Shown here in pieces: positions 4,474-28,720 of a stretch of DNA of 36,775 nt. The stretch is taken from contig JAOAGL010000001.1 of assembly GCA_026415775.1 (NCBI GenBank), positions 72,282 to 109,056 of the forward strand, given 5' to 3'. Numbering within the stretch: position 1 is the stretch's first letter; each line of letters opens with the position of its first letter. The notes below the pieces were generated by a model that did no database searches, was not told where the DNA came from, and saw nothing but the letters and a program-made list of their open reading frames with translations. Both the position numbers and the translations under genes were made by a program. The DNA comes from Patescibacteria group bacterium. Its GTDB lineage: Bacteria > Patescibacteriota > Minisyncoccia > UBA6257 > JAAZHW01.

Positions 4474-5503
4474 ATTTCATTTCTTTTAAAACTTTCTGTC
4501 TTAAGGCTTTGTCAATTTCTAAAGCAATTTTTGGGTTTTGTTTTAAAAATTCTTTCGCATTATCAATACCAACGCCCAATTTTGTCTCGCCGTAAAGATA
4601 CGAATTACCAGAACGATTAATGATACCGAATTTAACACCTGTATTAATTAAATCCCCTTCTTTGGAAATACCTTCATTATAAATAATATCAAATTCTGCC
4701 TCCCTAAATGGTGGCGCCACTTTATTCTTTACCACTTTTACTTTGACTCGGGAACCAATAATTTCTTCTCCTTTTTTCACCTGCGCTGTCCGGCGAATAT
4801 CTAATCTAACAGAGGCATAAAATTTCAACGCTCGGCCGCCCGGCGTTGTTTCTGGATTACCAAACATAATGCCAACCTGCATTCGAATTTGATTGATAAA
4901 AATAATAACGGTTTTGGTTTTGGCGGCAATTGCAGTAATTTTTCTTAAAGCTTGCGACATTAATCGCGCCTGAAGACCAATATGCTGCGCGCCCATTTCT
5001 CCCTCAATTTCCGCTCGAGGAGTTAGCGCTGCTACCGAATCAACAACAATTACATCCAAAGAACCAGAACGCACTAATTGTTCCATAATATTTAATGCCT
5101 CCTCACCATTATCAGGTTGGGAAATAAAAAGTTCATTTAATTTAACGCCGATTTTTTTAGCATATTCAGGATCCAACGCATGCTCCGCATCAATAAAAGC
5201 TGCCTTTCCTCCTTGTTTTTGCGCCTGTGCTACAATATGCAAAGCTAAAGTTGTTTTACCGCTCGATTCTGGTCCAAAAATCTCAACGATTCTCCCCCGC
5301 GGCACACCACCGACACCCAAAGCTAAATCTAAAGAAATCGAACCAGTAGAAATAGCTTCCACATCTACCCTTGGCGCTTCTCCCAATTTCATAATTGCGC
5401 CTTCTCCGAATTTTGCTTGGATTTCTTTAATTGTCGCTTCCAAAATTTCGTCTTTTTCATCTATTGTTTCTTTTTCTTCTTTTTTCTTTGATTGTTTTAC
5501 CAT
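4472..5503 (-). CDS. recA: recombinase RecA
   Basis: Walker [29 protein letters not shown] and the canonical C-terminal domain. Confidence 0.97.
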
Positions 5504-6770: not shown

Positions 6771-7198
6771 TAATCTTTGCTTTTAATTTTAATTTTTTTC
6801 TCTTCGGAGCGTGAAGGCGACTTCTTTGGCATTACAACTTTTAATACACCTTTTTCATAGTTTGCCTCAACCTTGTCCTCATCAATCTCAACAGGAATTC
6901 TAACTATTCTTTCAAATTCACCGCGTCGAATTTCTTTTCGCCAATAATCTTTTTTCTTTTCTTCTTCTTTACTTTCAGTTGAACCTTTTATAGTTAAAAC
7001 TTGATCTTTAACTGAAACTTCAACTTTCTCTGGATCAACGTTGGGCAAATTTAATTCAGCAATAACTTCTTTATCAGTTTGATAAAGGTCCATTGTCGGT
7101 TCTTTAAAGAAAGAGGTTGAAACAACTGGCAAAAACCAGTCATCATCTTCAAAAAATTTTTCTAAATCTCTAAAAGGACTCCAACGAATTAAGCTCAT
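6770..7198 (-). CDS. Hsp20/alpha-crystallin small heat-shock protein
   Basis: Alpha-crystallin domain pattern (DLYQTDKEVIAELNLPNVDPEKVEVSV...GEFERIVRIP...GVLKVVMPK). Confidence 0.9.
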   Translation of the reverse strand: MSLIRWSPFRDLEKFFEDDDWFLPVVSTSFFKEPTMDLYQTDKEVIAELNLPNVDPEKVEVSVKDQVLTIKGSTESKEEEKKKDYWRKEIRRGEFERIVRIPVEIDEDKVEANYEKGVLKVVMPKKSPSRSEEKKIKIKSKD

Positions 7199-10623: not shown

Positions 10624-11586
10624 CTATTTATCCCATTGAAAACCTCGACCAAAATGACCCCACGACGCTGTTTTTAAAAAAATCGGATTTCTTAAATTTA
10701 AAAATTTAATAATGCCTTGCGGCGTTAAATCATATCCTTTAATTTCATCACTTACTCCATCAACAATCACTTCCTTCATTAATGGTTTTTCCTCGCCAAT
10801 CGCATAAGCTAAACGTACAAAAACCTCTTTTGCTTTATATTTCCTTAAATAATCAACAGCAATTTTCCGCGCCATATAAGCAGCGCTGCGATCAACTTTG
10901 GTTCCATCTTTGCCGCTAAAAGAACCTCCTCCAACTGGTACATTTGGACCATACGAATCAATAACTAATTTGCGACCAGTCAAACCACTATCAGCATCAA
11001 AACCACCCGTTTGCCAATCGCCAGCTGGATTAATATAATACTTTTCTGCTTTAATTAATTTTCTTACTAATTTTTCTAATGTTTCACGTGAAACATTTTG
11101 AAAACTTGCTACAACTGATAAAACTTTTTTACCATAAATAGTCACTTGTGTTTTTCCATCATATGGAAACCTTTCGTAAATTTTTTGACAAAGATAACGC
11201 GATAATTCATATTCTAAAGGCATTAAACTTTTTGTGTCACTAGTTGCATAACCATTCATAATCCCTTGATCGCCAGCACCGCCTTTTTCTACGCCTCGAG
11301 CAATTTCCAAACTCTGCTCTACTAATCGTATTTCTAATTTAAATTTCAGACCAACAAATTTTTGAATAATTTTTCTTATTTCTTTTTCACCTAATTTTAT
11401 TCGACTTTTTACTTCACCAATCACAGCCACTAAATTATGACCAGCTAAAATTTCAATGGCTGTGCGCGCAAAGGGATCTTTTTTTAAATAAGCATCAAGC
11501 AAAGCATCAGCCATTTGATCGCATAATTTATCAGGGTGTTTTGGTGAAACAAATTCAGCGGTTTTAATTAATTTTTCTTTTTTCAT
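10624..11586 (-). CDS. metK: S-adenosylmethionine synthetase, compact 320-aa form
   Basis: HPDKLCDQ, GAGDQGIM, GLTGRKLVID and GGGSFSGKDGTKVDRSAAY motifs; loops are shorter than in ~385-aa MetK. Confidence 0.9.
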   Translation of the reverse strand: MKKEKLIKTAEFVSPKHPDKLCDQMADALLDAYLKKDPFARTAIEILAGHNLVAVIGEVKSRIKLGEKEIRKIIQKFVGLKFKLEIRLVEQSLEIARGVEKGGAGDQGIMNGYATSDTKSLMPLEYELSRYLCQKIYERFPYDGKTQVTIYGKKVLSVVASFQNVSRETLEKLVRKLIKAEKYYINPAGDWQTGGFDADSGLTGRKLVIDSYGPNVPVGGGSFSGKDGTKVDRSAAYMARKIAVDYLRKYKAKEVFVRLAYAIGEEKPLMKEVIVDGVSDEIKGYDLTPQGIIKFLNLRNPIFLKTASWGHFGRGFQWDK

Positions 11587-11644: not shown

Positions 11645-11758
11645 ACCAGTTATCTCTCCCTTTTAGGGTCTGGATTTGGCACCTTCTTTAAGGAGTCACC
11701 TTAAAGGGTTGCCGACGGATCATTGGGCCAGTTCCCTCCCCGCACTCGCGATAACTTT
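11645..11758 (-). promoter_or_regulatory. SAM-I (S-box) riboswitch aptamer
   Basis: The minus strand reads GTTATCGCGAGTGCGGGGAGGGAACTGGCCCAATGATCCGTCGGCAACC...AAGGTGCCAAATCCAGACC...GGGAGAGATAAC. This matches the conserved S-box cores (GAGGGA-UGGCCC-AUGA, GCAACC, GGUGCCAA-UCC, AGAUAA P1 closure) directly upstream of metK. Confidence 0.85.
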
Positions 11759-20466: not shown

Positions 20467-20508
20467 TGATGTTTTTTATTTTATTGATTAAAAAAATTTT
20501 TTCAATAA

Positions 20509-20535
20509 AAAGGGCTGTCTATTAGACAGCCCTTT
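20509..20535 (-). terminator. hairpin terminator of the SPFH gene
   Basis: AAAGGGCTGTCT-att-AGACAGCCCTTT, followed by a T-run on the minus strand. Confidence 0.65.
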
Positions 20536-20541
20536 ATGCCT

Positions 20542-21495
20542 TTATTTTTCTTTTTGCTTCATTAATTTAGTAGTATCGAATACTGGTGTAATATCAGATC
20601 CGTAGGGGAAAAACATAATAGTGTTTGAAGGAGATTCAGCTACGCTGGGAAGATTTTTTATGAAATACCACTGTAAGTACTCTTTTGTTAAGGATTGTTG
20701 AATAATTTTATTAGATTCTGCTATCCCCTGAGCTTCAATGATTTTCCTCTCCTTTTCTTTTTGTTCTTTTAGAATTTTGTACTGCATCTCCTGGGCCTCC
20801 TGGTCAGCCTGCATTTTTCTTTCAATAGCCTGTTCTAGTTGATCAGGAAGCTTGACCTTCCTTATGGTAAAATCAACACCCAACACCCACATCTTTTCTG
20901 CTTTTTCACAAAATCGCTCAAAAATCCTTCTGCCAAATTCTTCTCTTTTTTGAGGGTGGGAGTAAATATCATTGGAGCTATAATTTACAGCGATGTCCCT
21001 TGCTGCACCTCGTAACTGAGGTAGTGCTACGGTCGAGAGTGGATCGCCTGAAATGTTTAACAAATATTTGTGGGCATTGGCAACATCAAGCCTATACCAC
21101 AATGTAGCATCCAAAAAAACCCTCAAGCCGTCATTCATCAGCACATCCATCGTTGTAGTAGCTCCTTCTCCTTCAACATTCAAAGGAATGTGCATGGTCA
21201 ACTCCTGGATCCGTCCGTCCATCTTTTCAACTTGTACAAATGGATTTACTAAATGTAATCCAGAGGGGATAATTTTCATTTGAACCTTACCAAATAGAAC
21301 GGGCACCCCCACATGGCCAACAGGAATCACCGTGAAAAAAGAGATTGAAAAAATTAAAATACATGTGCCTATCGCCAAAGCAATTGTACCCGTGGTTATC
21401 CCCTTTTTGTCATTCCCCTCTCGTACGTCCTTCAACCACCAAAGCAAACCTAATCCCGCAAAAATTCCCAAAACCAAAAGTCCTATGCCTTGCAT
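20542..21495 (-). CDS. SPFH/band-7 (prohibitin/HflC-like) membrane protein
   Basis: N-terminal TM helices, SPFH core (VPVGHVGVPVLFGKV...LRVFLDATLWYRL...), C-terminal coiled coil (QEAQEMQYKILKEQKEKERKIIEAQGIAESNKII). RBS CAGGAGGTTTAA before the ATG. Confidence 0.85.
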   Translation of the reverse strand: MQGIGLLVLGIFAGLGLLWWLKDVREGNDKKGITTGTIALAIGTCILIFSISFFTVIPVGHVGVPVLFGKVQMKIIPSGLHLVNPFVQVEKMDGRIQELTMHIPLNVEGEGATTTMDVLMNDGLRVFLDATLWYRLDVANAHKYLLNISGDPLSTVALPQLRGAARDIAVNYSSNDIYSHPQKREEFGRRIFERFCEKAEKMWVLGVDFTIRKVKLPDQLEQAIERKMQADQEAQEMQYKILKEQKEKERKIIEAQGIAESNKIIQQSLTKEYLQWYFIKNLPSVAESPSNTIMFFPYGSDITPVFDTTKLMKQKEK

Positions 21496-21508
21496 TTAAA
21501 CCTCCTGA

Positions 21509-21555
21509 TGTTCCTTTGTTGCCTGCCGACATAATCGGTTCAGGTATCCGGAACA
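21509..21555 (-). promoter_or_regulatory. GC-rich stem-loop in the SPFH 5' leader
   Basis: The minus strand reads TGTTCC-ggata-CCTG-aa-CCGA-ttatg-TCGG-CAGG-caacaaa-GGAACA, ending directly before TCAGGAGG. Confidence 0.35.
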
Positions 21556-21573
21556 TTTTTAATTTGCTAATTA

Positions 21574-21602
21574 TATATTAAACTTTTTTTAATTTTTGTC
21601 AA
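21574..21602 (-). promoter_or_regulatory. candidate promoter of the SPFH gene
   Basis: Minus strand: TTGACA, 17 nt, AATATA (TATATA at a 19-nt spacing). Confidence 0.45.
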
Positions 21603-21668
21603 GACTAATTTTTCTTGAATTATTCCATTCTTTTAGTAAAATTAAAAATTAGTAAATAATAAAATGTT

Positions 21669-21788: not shown

Positions 21789-22967
21789 ATGAAGGTTTTG
21801 GCTATTGAAACAAGCTGTGATGAAACCTCAATAAGCATTTTGGAATTTGATGCTAAAAAAAGATGCCGCATTTTGGCTAATTTTGTTTATTCGCAAATTG
21901 CAGTGCATCAACCTTTTGGCGGTGTAGTGCCGACTTTGGCCAAACGCGAACACCAAAAAAATTTGGTCCCTATTTTAAAATTGGCCTTAAAAAAAGCTGC
22001 TTTATTAAAAAAGAGAAAAAATACTATTTCCTCTAAAAAAATCTCTATTATTAAAGAAATTCTGGCCCGCGATGAAATTTTACAACAACAAACGCTTGAT
22101 TTTTTTACTCAATATCAAAAACCTCAAATTCACTTCATTGCTGTTACAGCAGGACCAGGATTAGCTCCTGCTCTTTGGCCGGGCGTTAACTTTGCCCGCG
22201 CTTTAAGTTTTTATTGGCAAACTCCACTTATTGGTGTCAATCATTTAGAAGGCCACGTTTTGGCTAACTGGCTCCCCAAAGAAGAAAAAGTATGGCAAAA
22301 AATAAATATTTCTCCTAAAATTTTTCCAGCGTTAAGTTTAATTGTTTCCGGCGGCCATACTCAGTTGGTCTTAATTAAAAAATTAGGCCATTATAAAGTT
22401 ATTGGTGAAACACGTGATGATGCTGCCGGTGAGTGTTTTGATAAAACAGCGCGTCTTTTAAATTTGGGATATCCCGGCGGTCCAGCCATTGCTAAAGAAG
22501 CAGCAAAATTTCAAAAAGAAAATCCATTTTCTATTCAATTACCTCGGCCAATGATTAATTCAAAAGACTATGATTTTTCTTTTGCTGGTTTAAAAACAGC
22601 TGTTCTTTATTTAATTGAGGATTTAAAAAAGAAAAATGTAAATTTAAAAAAACTCAAACCTCTTATAGCTAAAGAAATCCAAGATAGTATTAATGAAGTT
22701 TTAGTAAAAAAGACGATTCAAGCAGCTAAAAATTTTAAAACCCACAGTATTATTTTAGGAGGTGGAGTAGCTGCAAACGAAAATTTAAAATTTTTATTAG
22801 CTAATGAAGTTAAAAAACAATTGCCAAAAATTCAACTATTTATTCCTGAAACAAAATATACTGGCGATAATGCCGCAATGATTGCTTTGGTTGGTTGGTT
22901 AAAGAAGAAATCTGCCAATATCAATAATTGGAAAAAATTAGAAGCTGATGCTAATCTGAGATTATAG
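21789..22967 (+). CDS. tsaD: tRNA N6-adenosine threonylcarbamoyltransferase TsaD
   Basis: MKVLAIETSCDETS start, GVNHLEGH, GGPAIAKEA and GGVAANENL motifs. The start is moved to the internal ATG at 21789. Confidence 0.9.
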   Translation: MKVLAIETSCDETSISILEFDAKKRCRILANFVYSQIAVHQPFGGVVPTLAKREHQKNLVPILKLALKKAALLKKRKNTISSKKISIIKEILARDEILQQQTLDFFTQYQKPQIHFIAVTAGPGLAPALWPGVNFARALSFYWQTPLIGVNHLEGHVLANWLPKEEKVWQKINISPKIFPALSLIVSGGHTQLVLIKKLGHYKVIGETRDDAAGECFDKTARLLNLGYPGGPAIAKEAAKFQKENPFSIQLPRPMINSKDYDFSFAGLKTAVLYLIEDLKKKNVNLKKLKPLIAKEIQDSINEVLVKKTIQAAKNFKTHSIILGGGVAANENLKFLLANEVKKQLPKIQLFIPETKYTGDNAAMIALVGWLKKKSANINNWKKLEADANLRL

Positions 22968-23026
22968 AATTTATTTAATAAGAATTATTTTTAATAATTT
23001 TGTCAAGAGATATTTTTAAACAAAAT

Positions 23027-23046
23027 CCCCTATTTATCCACAGGGG
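23027..23046 (+). terminator. weak hairpin (possible tsaD terminator) whose loop carries a perfect DnaA box
   Basis: CCCCT-atttatccac-AGGGG followed by TTTTATTTT. TTATCCACA lies at 23034..23042. Confidence 0.3.
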
Positions 23047-23188
23047 TTTTATTTTAAATTGTCCTGGTTGATTTTTAAGACCGCTCTTTATTTTGTTGTT
23101 TTAAACCCGCCCACTCACCCGCTCCATTTTTATCTCGATCCCGCCCACTTGTCTCATCCCATTCAGAACCATTGCCGACCTATGATAT

Positions 23189-23208
23189 GTCGCACAATAT
23201 TGTTTCAC
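23189..23208. repeat. left arm of a perfect 20-nt inverted repeat bracketing the parS array
   Basis: GTCGCACAATATTGTTTCAC is the exact reverse complement of 23581..23600. Confidence 0.9.
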
Positions 23209-23240
23209 AAAAATTTTGTGAAACACTTTCCCAACCAAAA

Positions 23241-23480
23241 TGTTTCACGTGAAACATTTTCGGCCTCCTGCACCCTAAAGTGTTTCACGTGAAACATTTC
23301 TGATATTTTTCAGGCTTAAACATTACTTAAAAAACCACTAAAAATGTTTCACGTGAAACATTTTAAGATTGAGTATTTCACAAAAAAATTCGCGAAACAC
23401 TCCAGGAATCAAAAAAACTTCCACAAAATGTTTCACGTGAAACATTTACCGAACTACCAAAAAGTGTTTCACGTGAAACA
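23241..23480. repeat. array of five exact parS palindromes (ParB-binding centromere-like sites)
   Basis: TGTTTCACGTGAAACA at 23241..23256, 23281..23296, 23345..23360, 23429..23444 and 23465..23480. This equals the conserved tGTTNCACGTGAAACa parS consensus. Confidence 0.85.
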
Positions 23481-23546
23481 CTTAAAACAAGTAAAAAATG
23501 AAAAATATAGAAAATATGTGAATTTGTGAATTTTTGCAATTTTGAT

Positions 23547-23574
23547 TTGACAAAAATGTTTCACATTGTATAAT
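23547..23574 (+). promoter_or_regulatory. near-consensus promoter of yraN embedded in a split parS
   Basis: TTGACA, 16 nt, TATAAT with TG immediately upstream. The spacer contains the half-site TGTTTCAC (23557..23564) and the partner GTGAAACA lies at 23581..23588. Confidence 0.6.
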
Positions 23575-23580
23575 TTTTTT

Positions 23581-23600
23581 GTGAAACAATATTGTGCGAC
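23581..23600. repeat. right arm of the 20-nt inverted repeat
   Basis: GTGAAACAATATTGTGCGAC. Confidence 0.9.
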
Positions 23601-23605
23601 GTATT

Positions 23606-23980
23606 ATGTCCAAGCAAACAAATAAAACCATCGGCACATTAGGAGAATTAATTGCTGAACGCCATCTTATAAAGGAAGGCTACAAGATTATTGCTAAAAA
23701 TGTCAGGGAGAAGTGGGGCGAGATTGACTTAATCGCCGATAATAAAAAAGAAATTGTTTTTATTGAGGTAAAAACTCTAATTCAAAAATCACCCTCTTTA
23801 TCAAACCTTAAACCTGAGGATCAAATGACCAACCATAAAATCCAACACCTTCAAAAAAGCATTCTTCATTATTTAAATAAAAATAAAATAAACGGAGATT
23901 ACCGCGTGGATTTAATTAGTGTTGAATTATACCCCCAATCTAAAAAATATCACCTTCGCCACTACAAAAATATTTTATAA
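23606..23980 (+). CDS. yraN: YraN/UPF0102 family endonuclease-like protein
   Basis: GTLGELIAERHLIKEGYKIIAKNVREKWGEIDLIA...IVFIEVKT pattern. ATG at 23606 is preferred over the tracked GTG at 23594. Confidence 0.8.
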   Translation: MSKQTNKTIGTLGELIAERHLIKEGYKIIAKNVREKWGEIDLIADNKKEIVFIEVKTLIQKSPSLSNLKPEDQMTNHKIQHLQKSILHYLNKNKINGDYRVDLISVELYPQSKKYHLRHYKNIL

Positions 23981-24006
23981 AAAAATCGCCCAGCTGGGCG
24001 ATTTTT
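23981..24006. terminator. bidirectional terminator
   Basis: Perfect 26-nt palindrome AAAAATCGCCCAGCTGGGCGATTTTT. Confidence 0.75.
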
Positions 24007-24118
24007 ATTTAGATACTTTTGTTTTTTGTAATTTGTATTTTTGTAAATAACGGAAGGTTGATGGTGTTCGATAGGCTAATTTTCCCTTTTTAGCTCGGCG
24101 TGAAGAATAATTTTTCAT
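24005..24118 (-). CDS. possible 37-aa highly basic small protein (not in ORF track)
   Basis: MKNYSSRRAKKGKLAYRTPSTFRYLQKYKLQKTKVSK. The ATG lies 1 nt after the upstream stop (TAAtATG), and the ORF ends inside the terminator palindrome. Confidence 0.3.
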   Translation of the reverse strand: MKNYSSRRAKKGKLAYRTPSTFRYLQKYKLQKTKVSK

Positions 24119-24119
24119 A

Positions 24120-24662
24120 TTACAAATTTATTTTTTCCGCCCATTTATATAAAATAGGAATGCGCCAATATCTTCCCAAAAGAGTTTGAAAAAAAGAATT
24201 AAGAGTAATTGCCAAAACCAATAAACCATAAAGCATATTAATAATGGGAATAAAATAAAAAATAGAAGTAACAAGTTGAAGGGCAAACCAAACTAGTCCT
24301 TGTTTAGCATGTTTCTGGCAAAATTGACTGTCACGTTTTAAAAATAGAGGAATAAGGAAAAGAAAAGATAAATAAGAAAAAACGGCCACATATTTATTTT
24401 GTTTTATATCTTCTTCTGATAATTTCTCGTTTTCTAATTGTAAATTATTTTTCTGTAAAAAAGCATCCAAATTATTTTTTTCTTCAAAGATTTCTTCAGA
24501 ATAATTATTAGTGGTTGATTCATTAATTTTTTTTGATAGATTTTCTTTTTCTTGATGTTGTGATAATGTGTCTATTGTAATTTTTAATTCGTCGGTTGAT
24601 AAATTATTTTTTGATGTTCTTGATGTTTTTTTGTTGGATGTTGATGATTTTTTTCTCGGCAT
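24120..24662 (-). CDS. DUF4870-family membrane protein with long low-complexity N-terminus
   Basis: Start reset to MPRKKSSTSNKK. FSYLSFLFLIPLF...FCQKHAKQGLVWFALQL matches the 13785..14117 paralog. Confidence 0.65.
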   Translation of the reverse strand: MPRKKSSTSNKKTSRTSKNNLSTDELKITIDTLSQHQEKENLSKKINESTTNNYSEEIFEEKNNLDAFLQKNNLQLENEKLSEEDIKQNKYVAVFSYLSFLFLIPLFLKRDSQFCQKHAKQGLVWFALQLVTSIFYFIPIINMLYGLLVLAITLNSFFQTLLGRYWRIPILYKWAEKINL

Positions 24663-26095: not shown

Positions 26096-27466
26096 ATGGA
26101 TAATAAAGAGCTTTGGCAATTGGTTTTAGGGGAGTTAGAACTTCAAATTTCGAAGCCAAATTTTCAAACTTGGTTTAAAAATAGCGCTTTAACCGAGAAA
26201 GGTGATGATTATGTAGTAATTAGTCTAGAAAGTGTCTTCGCAAAAGAGTGGGTAGAGACCAAATATAACAAATTATTGCTTAAAATTATCCGAAATTTCG
26301 AGCCGGAAATCAAAGAAATTCGCTATCAAATCCAACCGACTACTAAACCAGCTGTTTTAATCACCAAAAAGAAGGTGGAGGCAACCATTGAAACCGAAAA
26401 TCTGAATTTAAATGACTTTTCTATTGATCCAAAAACTAATTTAAATTCAAAATATACATTTCAAAATTTTATTGTTGGTTCTAATAATGAATTGGCTTAC
26501 TCGGCCGCTATGGCTGTTATTCAAGAATTGGGGAAAAAATATAATCCGTTATTCATTTATGGTGGTGTTGGGTTGGGTAAAACTCATTTAATCCAAGCCG
26601 TTGGTAATGAATTAAAGAAAAATTATAAAAATAAAATTGGAATTAAATATGTTTCAACAGAAACTTTTGTTAATGAAGTAATTAATGGAATCAAAAATAA
26701 AAGAATGGAAGATGTAAAAAATAAATATCGCAAAGTTGATGTTTTAATTATTGATGATATTCAATTTATTGCTGGTAAAGAAAAAACACAAGAGGAATTT
26801 TTCCATACATTTAATACTTTATATGAAAATAATAAGCAAATTATTATTTCATCAGACAGATCGCCTTATTTACTCTCAACCCTAGAAGAACGATTAAGGT
26901 CTCGTTTTGAAGGAGGAATGGTAGCAGATATTTCTTATCCGGATTTTGAAACAAGAATGGCTATTTTAAAGCTTAAATTACAAACTCATCATTCTGAAAT
27001 CTTTCTTTCTGATGAAATTTTAGGGTTAATTGCTGAGAAATTCCCTTATAATATTCGCGAATTAGAAGGTGCTTTAACGCGTTTATTGGGTATTTTAAAA
27101 ATTAGAAAATTAAATCCTACTAAAGAAAATATAGAAAATCTATTAAATGAAATAACCAATCAAAGGGTAATGATGATTGCGCCTGAATTAATTATTAAAA
27201 CCGTAGGAGAATTTTATAATATTCCCGAAAAAGATTTAATTAGTCATTCTCGGAAAAAAGAATTAGTTAAACCACGTCAAATTATCATGTATTTATTAAG
27301 AGAATATTTAAAATATTCATTTCCAACAATCGCTCGAAAATTAGGAGGCCGCGACCATACCACAATAATGCATGCTTATAATAAAATCACTCAGGAATTA
27401 CTAAAAAATCATTTATTAACCCAAGAAATTAATTTAATAAAAGAAAAAATATATAATCGTCATTAA
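26096..27466 (+). CDS. dnaA: chromosomal replication initiator DnaA
   Basis: Walker A GGVGLGKTHL, IDDIQFI, DIRELEGAL, C-terminal HTTIMHA. ATG at 26096 follows AGGTG. Confidence 0.95.
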   Translation: MDNKELWQLVLGELELQISKPNFQTWFKNSALTEKGDDYVVISLESVFAKEWVETKYNKLLLKIIRNFEPEIKEIRYQIQPTTKPAVLITKKKVEATIETENLNLNDFSIDPKTNLNSKYTFQNFIVGSNNELAYSAAMAVIQELGKKYNPLFIYGGVGLGKTHLIQAVGNELKKNYKNKIGIKYVSTETFVNEVINGIKNKRMEDVKNKYRKVDVLIIDDIQFIAGKEKTQEEFFHTFNTLYENNKQIIISSDRSPYLLSTLEERLRSRFEGGMVADISYPDFETRMAILKLKLQTHHSEIFLSDEILGLIAEKFPYNIRELEGALTRLLGILKIRKLNPTKENIENLLNEITNQRVMMIAPELIIKTVGEFYNIPEKDLISHSRKKELVKPRQIIMYLLREYLKYSFPTIARKLGGRDHTTIMHAYNKITQELLKNHLLTQEINLIKEKIYNRH

Positions 27467-27619: not shown

Positions 27620-28720
27620 ATGAAAATTATTGTTATAAAGGAAAATTTAAAAAAGTCTTTTTCTGATGTAGAAGGGGGAATTGGTAGTGGGGTAATGTTA
27701 CCCATACTAAAAAATGTTTTAATTACTACCGATGATGGAAGAATAAAAATTTGTTCTACTGATTTAGAAATTGCTATTACTAGCTGGATTAATGGAAAAA
27801 TTGTGGATGAAGGTGGGATAACAGTGCCGGCTAATATTTTAGGAATGGTTTTAAATAATATTTCTGAATCAAAAATTGAATTAGATTCCACAGATTCAAA
27901 ATTAAAAATAAAAACCGATAAATCAGAAAATATTATTCAAGGAATTAAAGATTCAGAATATCCTATTATTCCAACTATTAAATCCGATAATTATATCGAG
28001 ATAAAAAGTGATGTCTTAAAAAAATCTTTAAATCAAATAATTTCAGCTGCCGCCTCATCTGATAGAAGAATCGAATTAAATGGAATTTTGTTTTATTTAA
28101 ATAATGAATTAAAAATGGTAGCTACAGACACTTTTCGATTAGCGGAGAAAACCTTAAAAAATAATGAATTTCAAACAAATATTACCGAATTACGCGCTAT
28201 TATTCCATTAAAAGTTATCCAAGAATTTCTAAAAATTTGTAAAGAAGATAAAGTTGTTAAAATTTATTTCGACCCACACCAAGTAATGTTTGATTTAGAG
28301 GATGTTCAAATAATTTCTCGGTTAATAGAAGGTAATTTTCCTGATTATCAATCTATAATTCCTCAAGATTTTTTAACTACTGTATTGATTAATAAAGAAT
28401 TTTTATACAATGCCATTAAATTAGCTTCTGTTTTTTCATCAAAAATTAATAATGTAAATATTAAAATAAAATCACCTAATAAATTTATTGTTTATAATCA
28501 AGAATCAAGTATTGGTGAGACTAAATCAGAATTAGATGCTGAAATTAATGGTGAAAATCAGGAATTGATATTTAATTGGCATTATTTAATTGATGGATTA
28601 AAAAATATTGAGAGTGAAGAAGTGTTTTTAGGTTTTAACGGAGATATAAAACCATTATTTATTAAATCACCAACCGATAATAATTACTTTTATATTCTAA
28701 TGCCGATTAAAAATAATTAA
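27620..28720 (+). CDS. dnaN: DNA polymerase III beta sliding clamp
   Basis: Position after dnaA, 366 aa, VATDTFRLAE and RLIEGNFPDY motifs. Confidence 0.9.
   Translation: MKIIVIKENLKKSFSDVEGGIGSGVMLPILKNVLITTDDGRIKICSTDLEIAITSWINGKIVDEGGITVPANILGMVLNNISESKIELDSTDSKLKIKTDKSENIIQGIKDSEYPIIPTIKSDNYIEIKSDVLKKSLNQIISAAASSDRRIELNGILFYLNNELKMVATDTFRLAEKTLKNNEFQTNITELRAIIPLKVIQEFLKICKEDKVVKIYFDPHQVMFDLEDVQIISRLIEGNFPDYQSIIPQDFLTTVLINKEFLYNAIKLASVFSSKINNVNIKIKSPNKFIVYNQESSIGETKSELDAEINGENQELIFNWHYLIDGLKNIESEEVFLGFNGDIKPLFIKSPTDNNYFYILMPIKNN

Follow-up and report, generated by a model that had tools for sequence, protein, structure and literature searches.

The spacer between tsaD and yraN on a contig of a Patescibacteria group bacterium (GenBank JAOAGL010000001.1, 492,117 bp) contains a compact array of perfect parS sites, the 16-bp palindromes bound by ParB/Spo0J, together with separated parS half-sites at its edges. 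We analyzed 36.7 kb of this contig, referred to here as the window, and judging from sequence we consider it probable, at roughly 0.6, that the spacer is an origin-proximal ParB-loading centromere with flanking operator or boundary sites, found in a clade of Paceibacteria. The parts of this reading differ in strength. That the array is a ParB centromere is quite likely, and binding of this ParB to the split sites as well is a tentative proposal that falls somewhat short of even odds. The centromere reading derives from the identity of the sites to the universal consensus, their position, their conservation, and the symmetric nature of the variation they tolerate. We conclude that the feature is genuine and functional and that it is subject to selection. 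It is of a known kind, the chromosomal parS centromere, but both its architecture and its host are previously undescribed. The host belongs to the Candidate Phyla Radiation (CPR), as an earlier sequence-only reading of this DNA had supposed, since the homologues of its DnaA carry the names Minisyncoccia, Candidatus Paceibacterota, or Parcubacteria group. The CPR/Patescibacteria account for a large share of bacterial diversity and are mostly uncultured, and chromosome segregation is unstudied among them.

Contiguous and split parS sites in the spacer

An exact-match scan of the window located the 16-mer TGTTTCACGTGAAACA five times within 240 bp of the spacer, precisely where the sequence-only reading had reported it, and a sixth time inside metK, a copy that had been overlooked:

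23241..23256, parS 1, perfect, 24-nt palindrome
23281..23296, parS 2, perfect
23345..23360, parS 3, perfect, 24-nt palindrome (one mismatch in the copy of the closest relative, L001)
23429..23444, parS 4, perfect
23465..23480, parS 5, perfect
11080..11095, parS 6, perfect, isolated, 12 kb away from the array within the coding sequence of metK

All six are perfect matches to the 16-bp consensus palindrome TGTTNCACGTGAAACA, which supports the earlier identification of the 16-mer as canonical parS. Only 0.01 such sites are expected by chance in the window, and the observed count was matched in none of 100 shuffles. Several copies had been described as extending into longer palindromes, and this is indeed the case, the perfect arms of parS 1-5 measuring 12, 8, 12, 11, and 11 nt to give palindromes of 16-24 nt. 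The copies are irregularly spaced (40, 64, 84, and 36 nt) and the spacers between them are unique. When 41 sites from the clade described below are combined, they yield the extended consensus AAAR-TGTTTCACGTGAAACA-YTTT, the flank of which is stronger in the clade (85-90% A or T) than in low-GC loci of our survey of other phyla (42-64%). The metK copy, which resides in a minus-strand open reading frame (ORF) for S-adenosylmethionine synthetase (10624-11586), is flanked by AATG...CATT and fits this extended consensus in part. Single 8-nt half-sites also occur at 11544 and 22405. As a separate observation, metK is preceded by a SAM-I riboswitch at 11647-11757 (69 bits).

In addition to the contiguous sites, the spacer contains three pairs of separated parS half-sites, all confirmed at the positions first reported for them, and a long inverted repeat that brackets the entire set upstream of yraN:

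23182..23213, left arm of the inverted repeat, containing the 20-mer GTCGCACAATATTGTTTCAC at 23189-23208
23201..23225, left split site, TGTTTCAC-N9-GTGAAACA, a 25-nt perfect palindrome
23374..23399, internal split site, degenerate, TATTTCAC-N10-GCGAAACA
23547..23574, plus strand, promoter of the sigma-70 type, TTGACA-16-TATAAT, reading into yraN
23557..23588, right split site, TGTTTCAC-N16-GTGAAACA, enclosing the TATAAT -10 box
23576..23607, right arm of the inverted repeat, containing the inverted 20-mer GTGAAACAATATTGTGCGAC at 23581-23600, in the predicted 5' untranslated region
23606..23980, plus strand, yraN (UPF0102, PD-(D/E)xK nuclease-like), downstream of the promoter

The inverted repeat had been recognized as a 20-nt sequence, but it is longer, its arms measuring 32 nt (94%) and including a perfect core of 20 nt, and it bounds a unit of 426 bp. 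The 20-mer GTCGCAMAATWWTGTTTCAC occurs in every member of the clade and is confined to this spacer; neither it nor the split sites have a further copy elsewhere in the window or in about 1 Mb of sequence from relatives. Every split half-site forms the 9-mer TGTTTCACA, and the split sites carry a conserved 12-nt extension, GTCGCAMAATWW. Taking contiguous and split sites together, half-sites are spaced by 0, 7-9, or 16-17 bp, corresponding to centre-to-centre distances of 8, ~15-17, and 24-25 bp. The internal split site, degenerate in the window, is a perfect TGTTTCAC-N9-GTGAAACA in L001.

The two half-sites of the right split site (23557-23564 and 23581-23588) surround the -10 box at 23569-23574, such that the site overlaps the core promoter in the manner of a ParB/KorB-type operator, and an equivalent overlap exists in all members of the clade. 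The promoter, previously called near-consensus, matches the sigma-70 consensus at 12/12 positions. The 638-bp non-coding gap noted before likewise agrees with the coordinates of the tsaD stop (22967) and the yraN ATG (23606). ORFs within the spacer are not conserved, the array lies upstream of the sole strong promoter, and the region is not transcribed from that promoter. An Rfam search of the spacer returned no RNA family, and this result, together with the position of the array relative to the promoter, led us to reject an RNA element.

Conservation and selection in a clade of Paceibacteria

Relatives of the window comprised 80 loci from a metagenome scan with DnaA plus three loci from protein look-ups. 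Among these, the array is confined to a clade with 67-100% identical DnaA, represented by ten assemblies (L001, L123-L129, L207, and L209), of which L001/L206, a 242,645-bp JGI contig, is the closest relative with 98.3% identity over 15 kb. Alignment of the orthologous tsaD-yraN spacer in CPR relatives had been proposed as a check of the feature, and the layout proved to be kept in all ten assemblies: a left split site with the 20-mer is followed by 2-7 parS-like copies and then by a split site over the downstream promoter. The array is located 2.6-3.0 kb upstream of dnaA throughout the clade and, where the upstream flank is covered, downstream of tsaD or of one extra gene after tsaD (L125). 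Copy numbers range from 0 to 6 perfect parS, or 2-7 parS-like sites at no more than two mismatches, with six perfect and one near-perfect copy in L127, five plus two in L123, five in L125, four plus one in L001, two perfect in L129, two perfect and one degenerate in L209, and one plus three variants in L128. Assembly breaks occur at the element in three of about ten cases (inside the spacer in L124, at the left split site in L128, and inside a split site in L207), so such arrays are probably under-represented or truncated among metagenome-assembled genomes and the copy numbers should be read with some caution.

The left split site is orthologous in L001, L123, L125, L127, L128, L129, and L209, where it retains the form TGTTTCAC-N7-9-GTGAAACA preceded by GTCGCAMAATWW, and it is part of a 47-49 nt palindrome in L123, L125, and L127. 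The right split site has a spacing of N16-17 in L001 and L123-L127, in which its arrangement with the promoter is conserved as well, and a spacing of N7-9, again overlapping the promoter, in L128, L129, and L209. In these last three, the flanking sites are direct rather than inverted repeats.

Sequence divergence within the spacer is distributed very unevenly. Between the window and L001, motif columns differ by 2.0% versus 26.2% in the rest of the spacer (p=3e-13), and between L123 and L127 the values are 3.3% and 22.6% (p=1e-10), a contrast of roughly ten-fold; to judge from these alignments, purifying selection acts on the motifs and not on the spacer as a whole. Variation in parS across the clade is limited to symmetric central positions. 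In L124/L126, all three sites (7229, 7281, and 7333) contain CACGCG or CGCGCG instead of CACGTG and no perfect parS is present, while the same central variants are also found in L128 (181 and 310). The change in L124/L126 looks concerted, as in co-evolution with a binding protein or gene conversion, and its presence in all three copies is what would be expected if one dimeric protein reads them all.

Many parS copies of the relatives form part of much longer perfect palindromes (36-48 nt) that differ from copy to copy, such as GAAATCTGGCATAAAGTGTTTCAC|GTGAAACACTTTATGCCAGATTTC (-25.8 kcal/mol as single-stranded DNA), located at 2110-2170, 2225-2265, and 2290-2330 in L125, at 6995-7040 and 7255-7295 in L123, and at 295-345 in L128. 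The first copy has two arm variants that L123 and L127 carry in reverse order relative to each other, which looks like a flip of the palindrome. The region has also recombined. A patch covering tsaD (21789-23500) is 87% identical between the window and L001, compared with 99.9% further to the left and 99.7-100% from yraN rightward; the tsaD divergence is a recombination patch, with its right boundary inside the parS array. Separately, a Band7/SPFH gene of the window (20542-21495) is absent from L001 owing to a 1.1-kb indel to the left of tRNA-Arg/tsaD (window 20505-21667 versus L001 3959-4023).

The gene downstream of the array is weakly conserved. YraN orthologues in L123-L129 are only 43-59% identical, where DnaA is 71-90% identical. 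In L209, yraN (4612-4990) has five in-frame stops and is a pseudogene, but the upstream split site, the -10 box, three 20-mer sites, and the parS copies are all intact. L207 lacks yraN and has a perfect 20-mer and an N7 split site directly upstream of yebC. Since the element is kept where yraN is dead or absent, control of yraN is at most a side function and is unlikely to be the reason for the existence of the element. The proposed wiring of the array into the yraN promoter is thus upheld insofar as the split site overlaps the -10/+1 region of that promoter, whereas the element does not depend upon a functional yraN.

Position relative to the replication origin

The order of genes around the array is Band7 (minus strand), tRNA-Arg, tsaD (plus), the 638-bp gap, yraN (plus), a small membrane-protein gene (minus), yebC, ruvC, dnaA, dnaN, an HD-domain gene, and recG (minus), and the wider context, dnaA-dnaN-recG-gyrA, is chromosomal. 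To the left of ~21.5 kb genes are encoded by the minus strand, and beyond it by the plus strand. The lowest point of cumulative G-C is at 23,991, in a flat stretch that extends from 23,421 to 24,513. The skew minimum and the change in gene orientation place the array at a strand-composition switch point. Several features of the origin region lie to either side of it:

23027..23055, plus strand, tsaD terminator hairpin, CCCCT..AGGGG followed by a T-run, with a DnaA box in the loop
25996..26015, plus strand, two tandem DnaA boxes AAATCCACA in an 11-nt register, with an AT-rich stretch after them, shortly before dnaA
26090..27466, plus strand, dnaA (the database version begins at the ATG at 26096)
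27620-28720, dnaN, downstream of dnaA

With either dnaA start, the array is about 2.5 kb from the gene, as first estimated. By k-mer enrichment in 77 relatives, the DnaA box of this lineage was derived as (A/T)TCCACA, which is enriched about 20-fold upstream of dnaA and in the dnaA-dnaN spacer; the latter contains the boxes TTATCCAAA and TTATTCACA in the window. The tandem AAATCCACA pair is likely to be part of oriC, and oriC itself most likely flanks dnaA, with the array located ~2.5 kb away. The tsaD-yraN spacer has only two lineage-type 7-mers, at 23036 and 23419, and does not resemble an oriC box cluster. The loop of the tsaD terminator hairpin holds the only perfect DnaA box of the window, TTATCCACA (23034-23042). 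A box is kept in this loop in L001 and L123 (TTATCCACA), L127 (TTATTCACA), and L126 (TAATCCACA), even as neighbouring loop bases vary, whereas L129 and L209 lack it; the box could be a genuine DnaA site lying ~150 bp from the centromere. The other 7-mer, the core TTCCACA at 23419-23425, abuts parS 4 (CTTCCACAAAATGTTTCAC) and is identical in L001, although this placement may be chance, as the window contains 12 such 7-mers versus 7.4 expected.

Dense parS arrays in other bacteria and comparison with characterized systems

The sequence-only reading considered the density of the array to be unusual in itself, which is not the case. A survey that used a single genome for each species and required two perfect parS sites at a distance of 8-38 nt returned at least 120 loci from many phyla. 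Among the matches listed, 31 loci have at least three sites in 300 bp, and the densest has seven sites in 325 bp (six within any 300 bp). The array precedes parA by 31-360 bp in all five listed loci with at least four sites and in 16 of the 25 three-site loci; of the nine remaining three-site loci, seven have the array at the edge of the locus and two have no par gene in the locus. At such distances from parA, the survey arrays are probably autoregulatory as well as centromeric. The window array resembles those of Collinsella (three sites at 39-bp spacing), Lachnospiraceae (L083, seven sites), Eubacteriales (L102, five sites), and Acidimicrobiia in having 2-7 perfect 16-mers within 300 bp of non-coding sequence and short unique spacers between copies. 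However, the survey arrays adjoin parA, whereas the window array is uncoupled from parAB, with no ParA or ParB in ~23 kb to its left or ~21 kb to its right, and precedes yraN or, elsewhere in the clade, yebC. Dense arrays of perfect parS are evidently common, and it is the context of this one that is unusual: the features particular to the clade are the uncoupling from parAB and the split sites, none of which occur among the 120 survey loci listed from other phyla. Such widespread dense arrays upstream of parAB also correct the common view of chromosomal parS as single and scattered. In the Collinsella loci (L023, L028, L035, L043, L048, L051, L057, L073, L077, L088, L097, and L100), three perfect parS with 39-bp spacing are found 85 bp upstream of parA; this array is fixed genus-wide and no description of it was found in the literature searched.

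Characterized chromosomal ParABS centromeres, such as those of B. subtilis, C. crescentus, P. aeruginosa (parS1-4), C. glutamicum, and M. xanthus, share with the window the 16-bp consensus, origin proximity, conservation within a lineage, and the presence of several copies, which in the window include one within a gene (metK). Their sites are nonetheless spread over kilobases (four near oriC in P. aeruginosa and 22 near the origin in M. xanthus), as opposed to five in 240 bp of non-coding DNA, and the window array further differs in having no parAB within ~20 kb on either side, a CPR host, and flanking palindromes of split half-sites. The array also shares certain properties with plasmid iterated centromeres (F sopC, P1 parS box A/box B, and pSM19035 parS), which likewise pack many sites into one non-coding region and, in the case of P1 parS, combine two motif types asymmetrically. 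The sequence-only reading had called it plasmid-centromere-like. This label does not fit, because the spacing of the sites is irregular with no tandem repeats, the consensus is that of chromosomal parS, the context is that of dnaA-dnaN, no par operon is adjacent, and no related plasmid or phage arrays were found.

Two further groups of sites bear on the split half-sites. Half-parS heptamers, GTTTCAC or GTTCCAC, are known from P. aeruginosa and others (Kawalek et al. 2018, PMC5961200; PMC7022226), contain the same GTTTCAC half-site, and support narrow, non-spreading binding. They are single and dispersed by the hundreds over the genome, whereas those of the clade form inverted pairs at fixed spacings, carry the 12-nt extension, and occupy conserved positions at the array edges. 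ParB-family repressors (KorB of RK2/RA3, ParB silencing near parS, and S. pneumoniae ParB-parS) similarly act from a ParB-type site at a promoter, implying a coupling between partition and transcription. In contrast, KorB operators are contiguous palindromes on plasmids, while the window places a chromosomal -10 box between split halves, and its downstream gene is dispensable for conservation of the element.

A candidate mechanism and its alternatives

Based upon these features, several steps can be proposed. The five contiguous sites and the metK copy would be loading sites for the canonical ParB/Spo0J CTPase clamp, and their position next to oriC would allow new origins to be marked, compacted through SMC loading, and separated. 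ParB clamp closure probably requires juxtaposed parS halves, and the split sites would therefore presumably be static and non-loading, most simply held by a ParB dimer through its two DNA-binding domains, which are flexibly linked. To reach all three half-site spacings, DNA-binding domains would have to be tethered independently, an architecture which ParB possesses. By covering the -10/+1 region of the downstream promoter, the right split site would act as an operator, presumably for repression, and both flanking sites together might delimit or loop the ~400-bp centromere core. There is precedent for such a mode, in that ParB binds the half-parS GTTTCAC without spreading, one model being a single dimer on two separate half-sites (PMC7022226, PMC5961200). 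A more specific version, in which the split sites are a dedicated second mode whereby an open, non-clamping ParB dimer or a clade-specific partner at the array edges would provide a boundary or loop anchor as well as a promoter gate, is possible, though on balance we find it unlikely. If true, it would constitute a built-in centromere insulator/operator, which has not been described for any ParABS system, and would show a minimal CPR genome with unlinked parAB or an orphan ParB coupling origin segregation to local transcription. With three spacings of one half-site, the ~430-bp locus is a compact, conserved, and portable test object, which allows one to ask whether clamp loading needs contiguous half-sites and whether separated ones act as static operators or boundaries. 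ChIP-seq in E. coli has previously been carried out for 17 heterologous ParBs.

The cognate ParB, defined as a protein with a ParB_N CTPase domain, a helix-turn-helix (HTH), and, at the C-terminus, a dimerization domain, was sought both within and beyond the window. Domain searches identified no ParA or ParB domain in any ORF of the window, in agreement with what had been reported, and no HTH or other DNA-binding domain in its unannotated ORFs even at permissive thresholds. For tblastn, sequences of Spo0J and Soj were used, solely as probes; as a positive control, these detected ParB in 63/120 and ParA in 67/120 of the survey loci listed. A consensus-style query did recover canonical three-domain ParB proteins in Patescibacteria (P0135, P0157, and P0179), encoded in parA-parB operons, one of which is near scpAB. 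Chromosomal parB is present in 84% of bacterial orders, and orphan parB genes outside parAB operons are common (PMC12704722); the supplements of that study do not mention Patescibacteria, and our literature search for ParB/parS in CPR/Patescibacteria found no relevant paper.

Several observations weigh against the centromere reading or parts of it. The tblastn searches detected no ParB or ParA in the window, in a right extension of ~7.5 kb, or within +-10 kb of dnaA in 80 relatives (1.03 Mb). Neither of two CPR parAB loci has a parS site within +-10 kb; parS usage is therefore not uniform across the phylum, nor is its location fixed with respect to parAB. No parS-like site with up to two mismatches occurs within +-10 kb of dnaA in 73 Paceibacteria with 51-56% identical DnaA or in L208 (66%). 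These genomes lack the tsaD-yraN-yebC-ruvC-dnaA synteny, which is found only in the close clade, and their orthologous spacers are consequently not comparable. In most distant Paceibacteria (L130-L202), yebC-ruvC is located 4-8 kb downstream of dnaN on the opposite strand, whereas in the array clade it is directly upstream of dnaA on the same strand, such that an origin-proximal rearrangement coincides with the appearance of the array. With respect to the split sites, spacings of 0, 7-9, and 16-17 bp place the halves on different faces of the helix, and a rigid dimer would be unable to bind all three. Furthermore, the extension GTCGCAMAATWW is without counterpart in known ParB sites, which points to an additional or different protein, and promoter control cannot account for the left split site, with which no gene is associated.

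As ParB alone explains neither the 12-nt extension nor the gene-less left site, a separate protein is a serious rival for the split sites, and a clade-specific one is nearly as plausible there as a ParB dimer. In its full form, this alternative retains the array as a ParB centromere and assigns the split sites and the 20-mer to a different clade-specific protein that co-opted or converged on the half-site, for example a regulator or boundary factor communicating with the partition complex. We regard it as rather unlikely overall, even though it would account for an extension outside any known ParB footprint, for the absence of split sites from the listed loci of other phyla, which do have ParB, and for three spacings that are incompatible with one rigid geometry. 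No conserved candidate DNA-binding gene lies beside the element, however, and ParB binding to half-sites is already documented. The exact 8-9 nt half-site is moreover reused in every copy across ten genomes, for which the same recognition helix is the simplest explanation. Another view would treat the spacer as an oriC module combined with parS, with TGTTTCACA as a variant of the DnaA box and the split sites as inverted box pairs. TGTTTCACA differs from the relaxed box TTWTNCACA at one position, the GC skew has its minimum at the spacer, the perfect TTATCCACA that close relatives retain is located 150 bp to the left, and TTCCACA adjoins parS 4. The box derived from the 77 relatives nevertheless makes this very unlikely and led us to reject TGTTTCACA as a DnaA box: while (A/T)TCCACA is enriched in the dnaA-flanking spacers, TGTTTCACA has zero occurrences there, and the window already has tandem AAATCCACA boxes with an AT-rich stretch upstream of dnaA and more boxes in the dnaA-dnaN spacer. 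A G at position 2 is not known to be tolerated in characterized DnaA boxes.

It is also conceivable that the genome has no ParB and that the palindromes act structurally, as cruciforms or hairpins at the switch point, or via an unrelated binder such as YraN. This would agree with the failure to find ParB in the clade sequence searched, with the 36-48 nt palindromes of relatives, which far exceed what ParB needs, and with the junction-resolvase-type genes (yraN and ruvC) that follow the array. We consider it highly improbable nonetheless, as structure alone would not require the exact universal parS in every copy, including that in metK, the palindromes of the window are short (16-24 nt), the element persists without a functional yraN, and ParB is both encoded by Patescibacteria and present in most bacterial orders (84%, as above). 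The least probable alternative is that the 426-bp unit is a mobile or formerly mobile cassette, either a miniature inverted-repeat transposable element (MITE-like) or an integrated plasmid centromere, for which no current chromosomal function would be required. Its terminal inverted repeats (32 nt, 94%), its restriction to the clade and absence at DnaA identities of 66% or less, which would fit a single acquisition, and the divergent patch over tsaD and the left spacer (87% versus 99.7-100% on the right) are compatible with such an origin. Other observations speak against it: no target-site duplication is visible, the 20-mer has no second copy in the window or in ~1 Mb of relatives and does not occur in 2.9 million viral contigs, L128, L129, and L209 have their flanking sites as direct repeats, and the element occupies the same orthologous position in ten assemblies under strong, motif-specific purifying selection. 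BLAST against plasmid and phage records yielded only isolated matches of parS length and no related array, and a plasmid, phage, or mobile origin was rejected on these grounds. Viral contigs did contain 14 matches to the split pattern, about the level expected by chance, with no parS nearby.

Beyond the right edge of the window, L203 (15205-16552) encodes three successive small T4SS_pilin (PF18895) genes after gyrA, a methyltransferase gene, and a solute-binding-protein gene.

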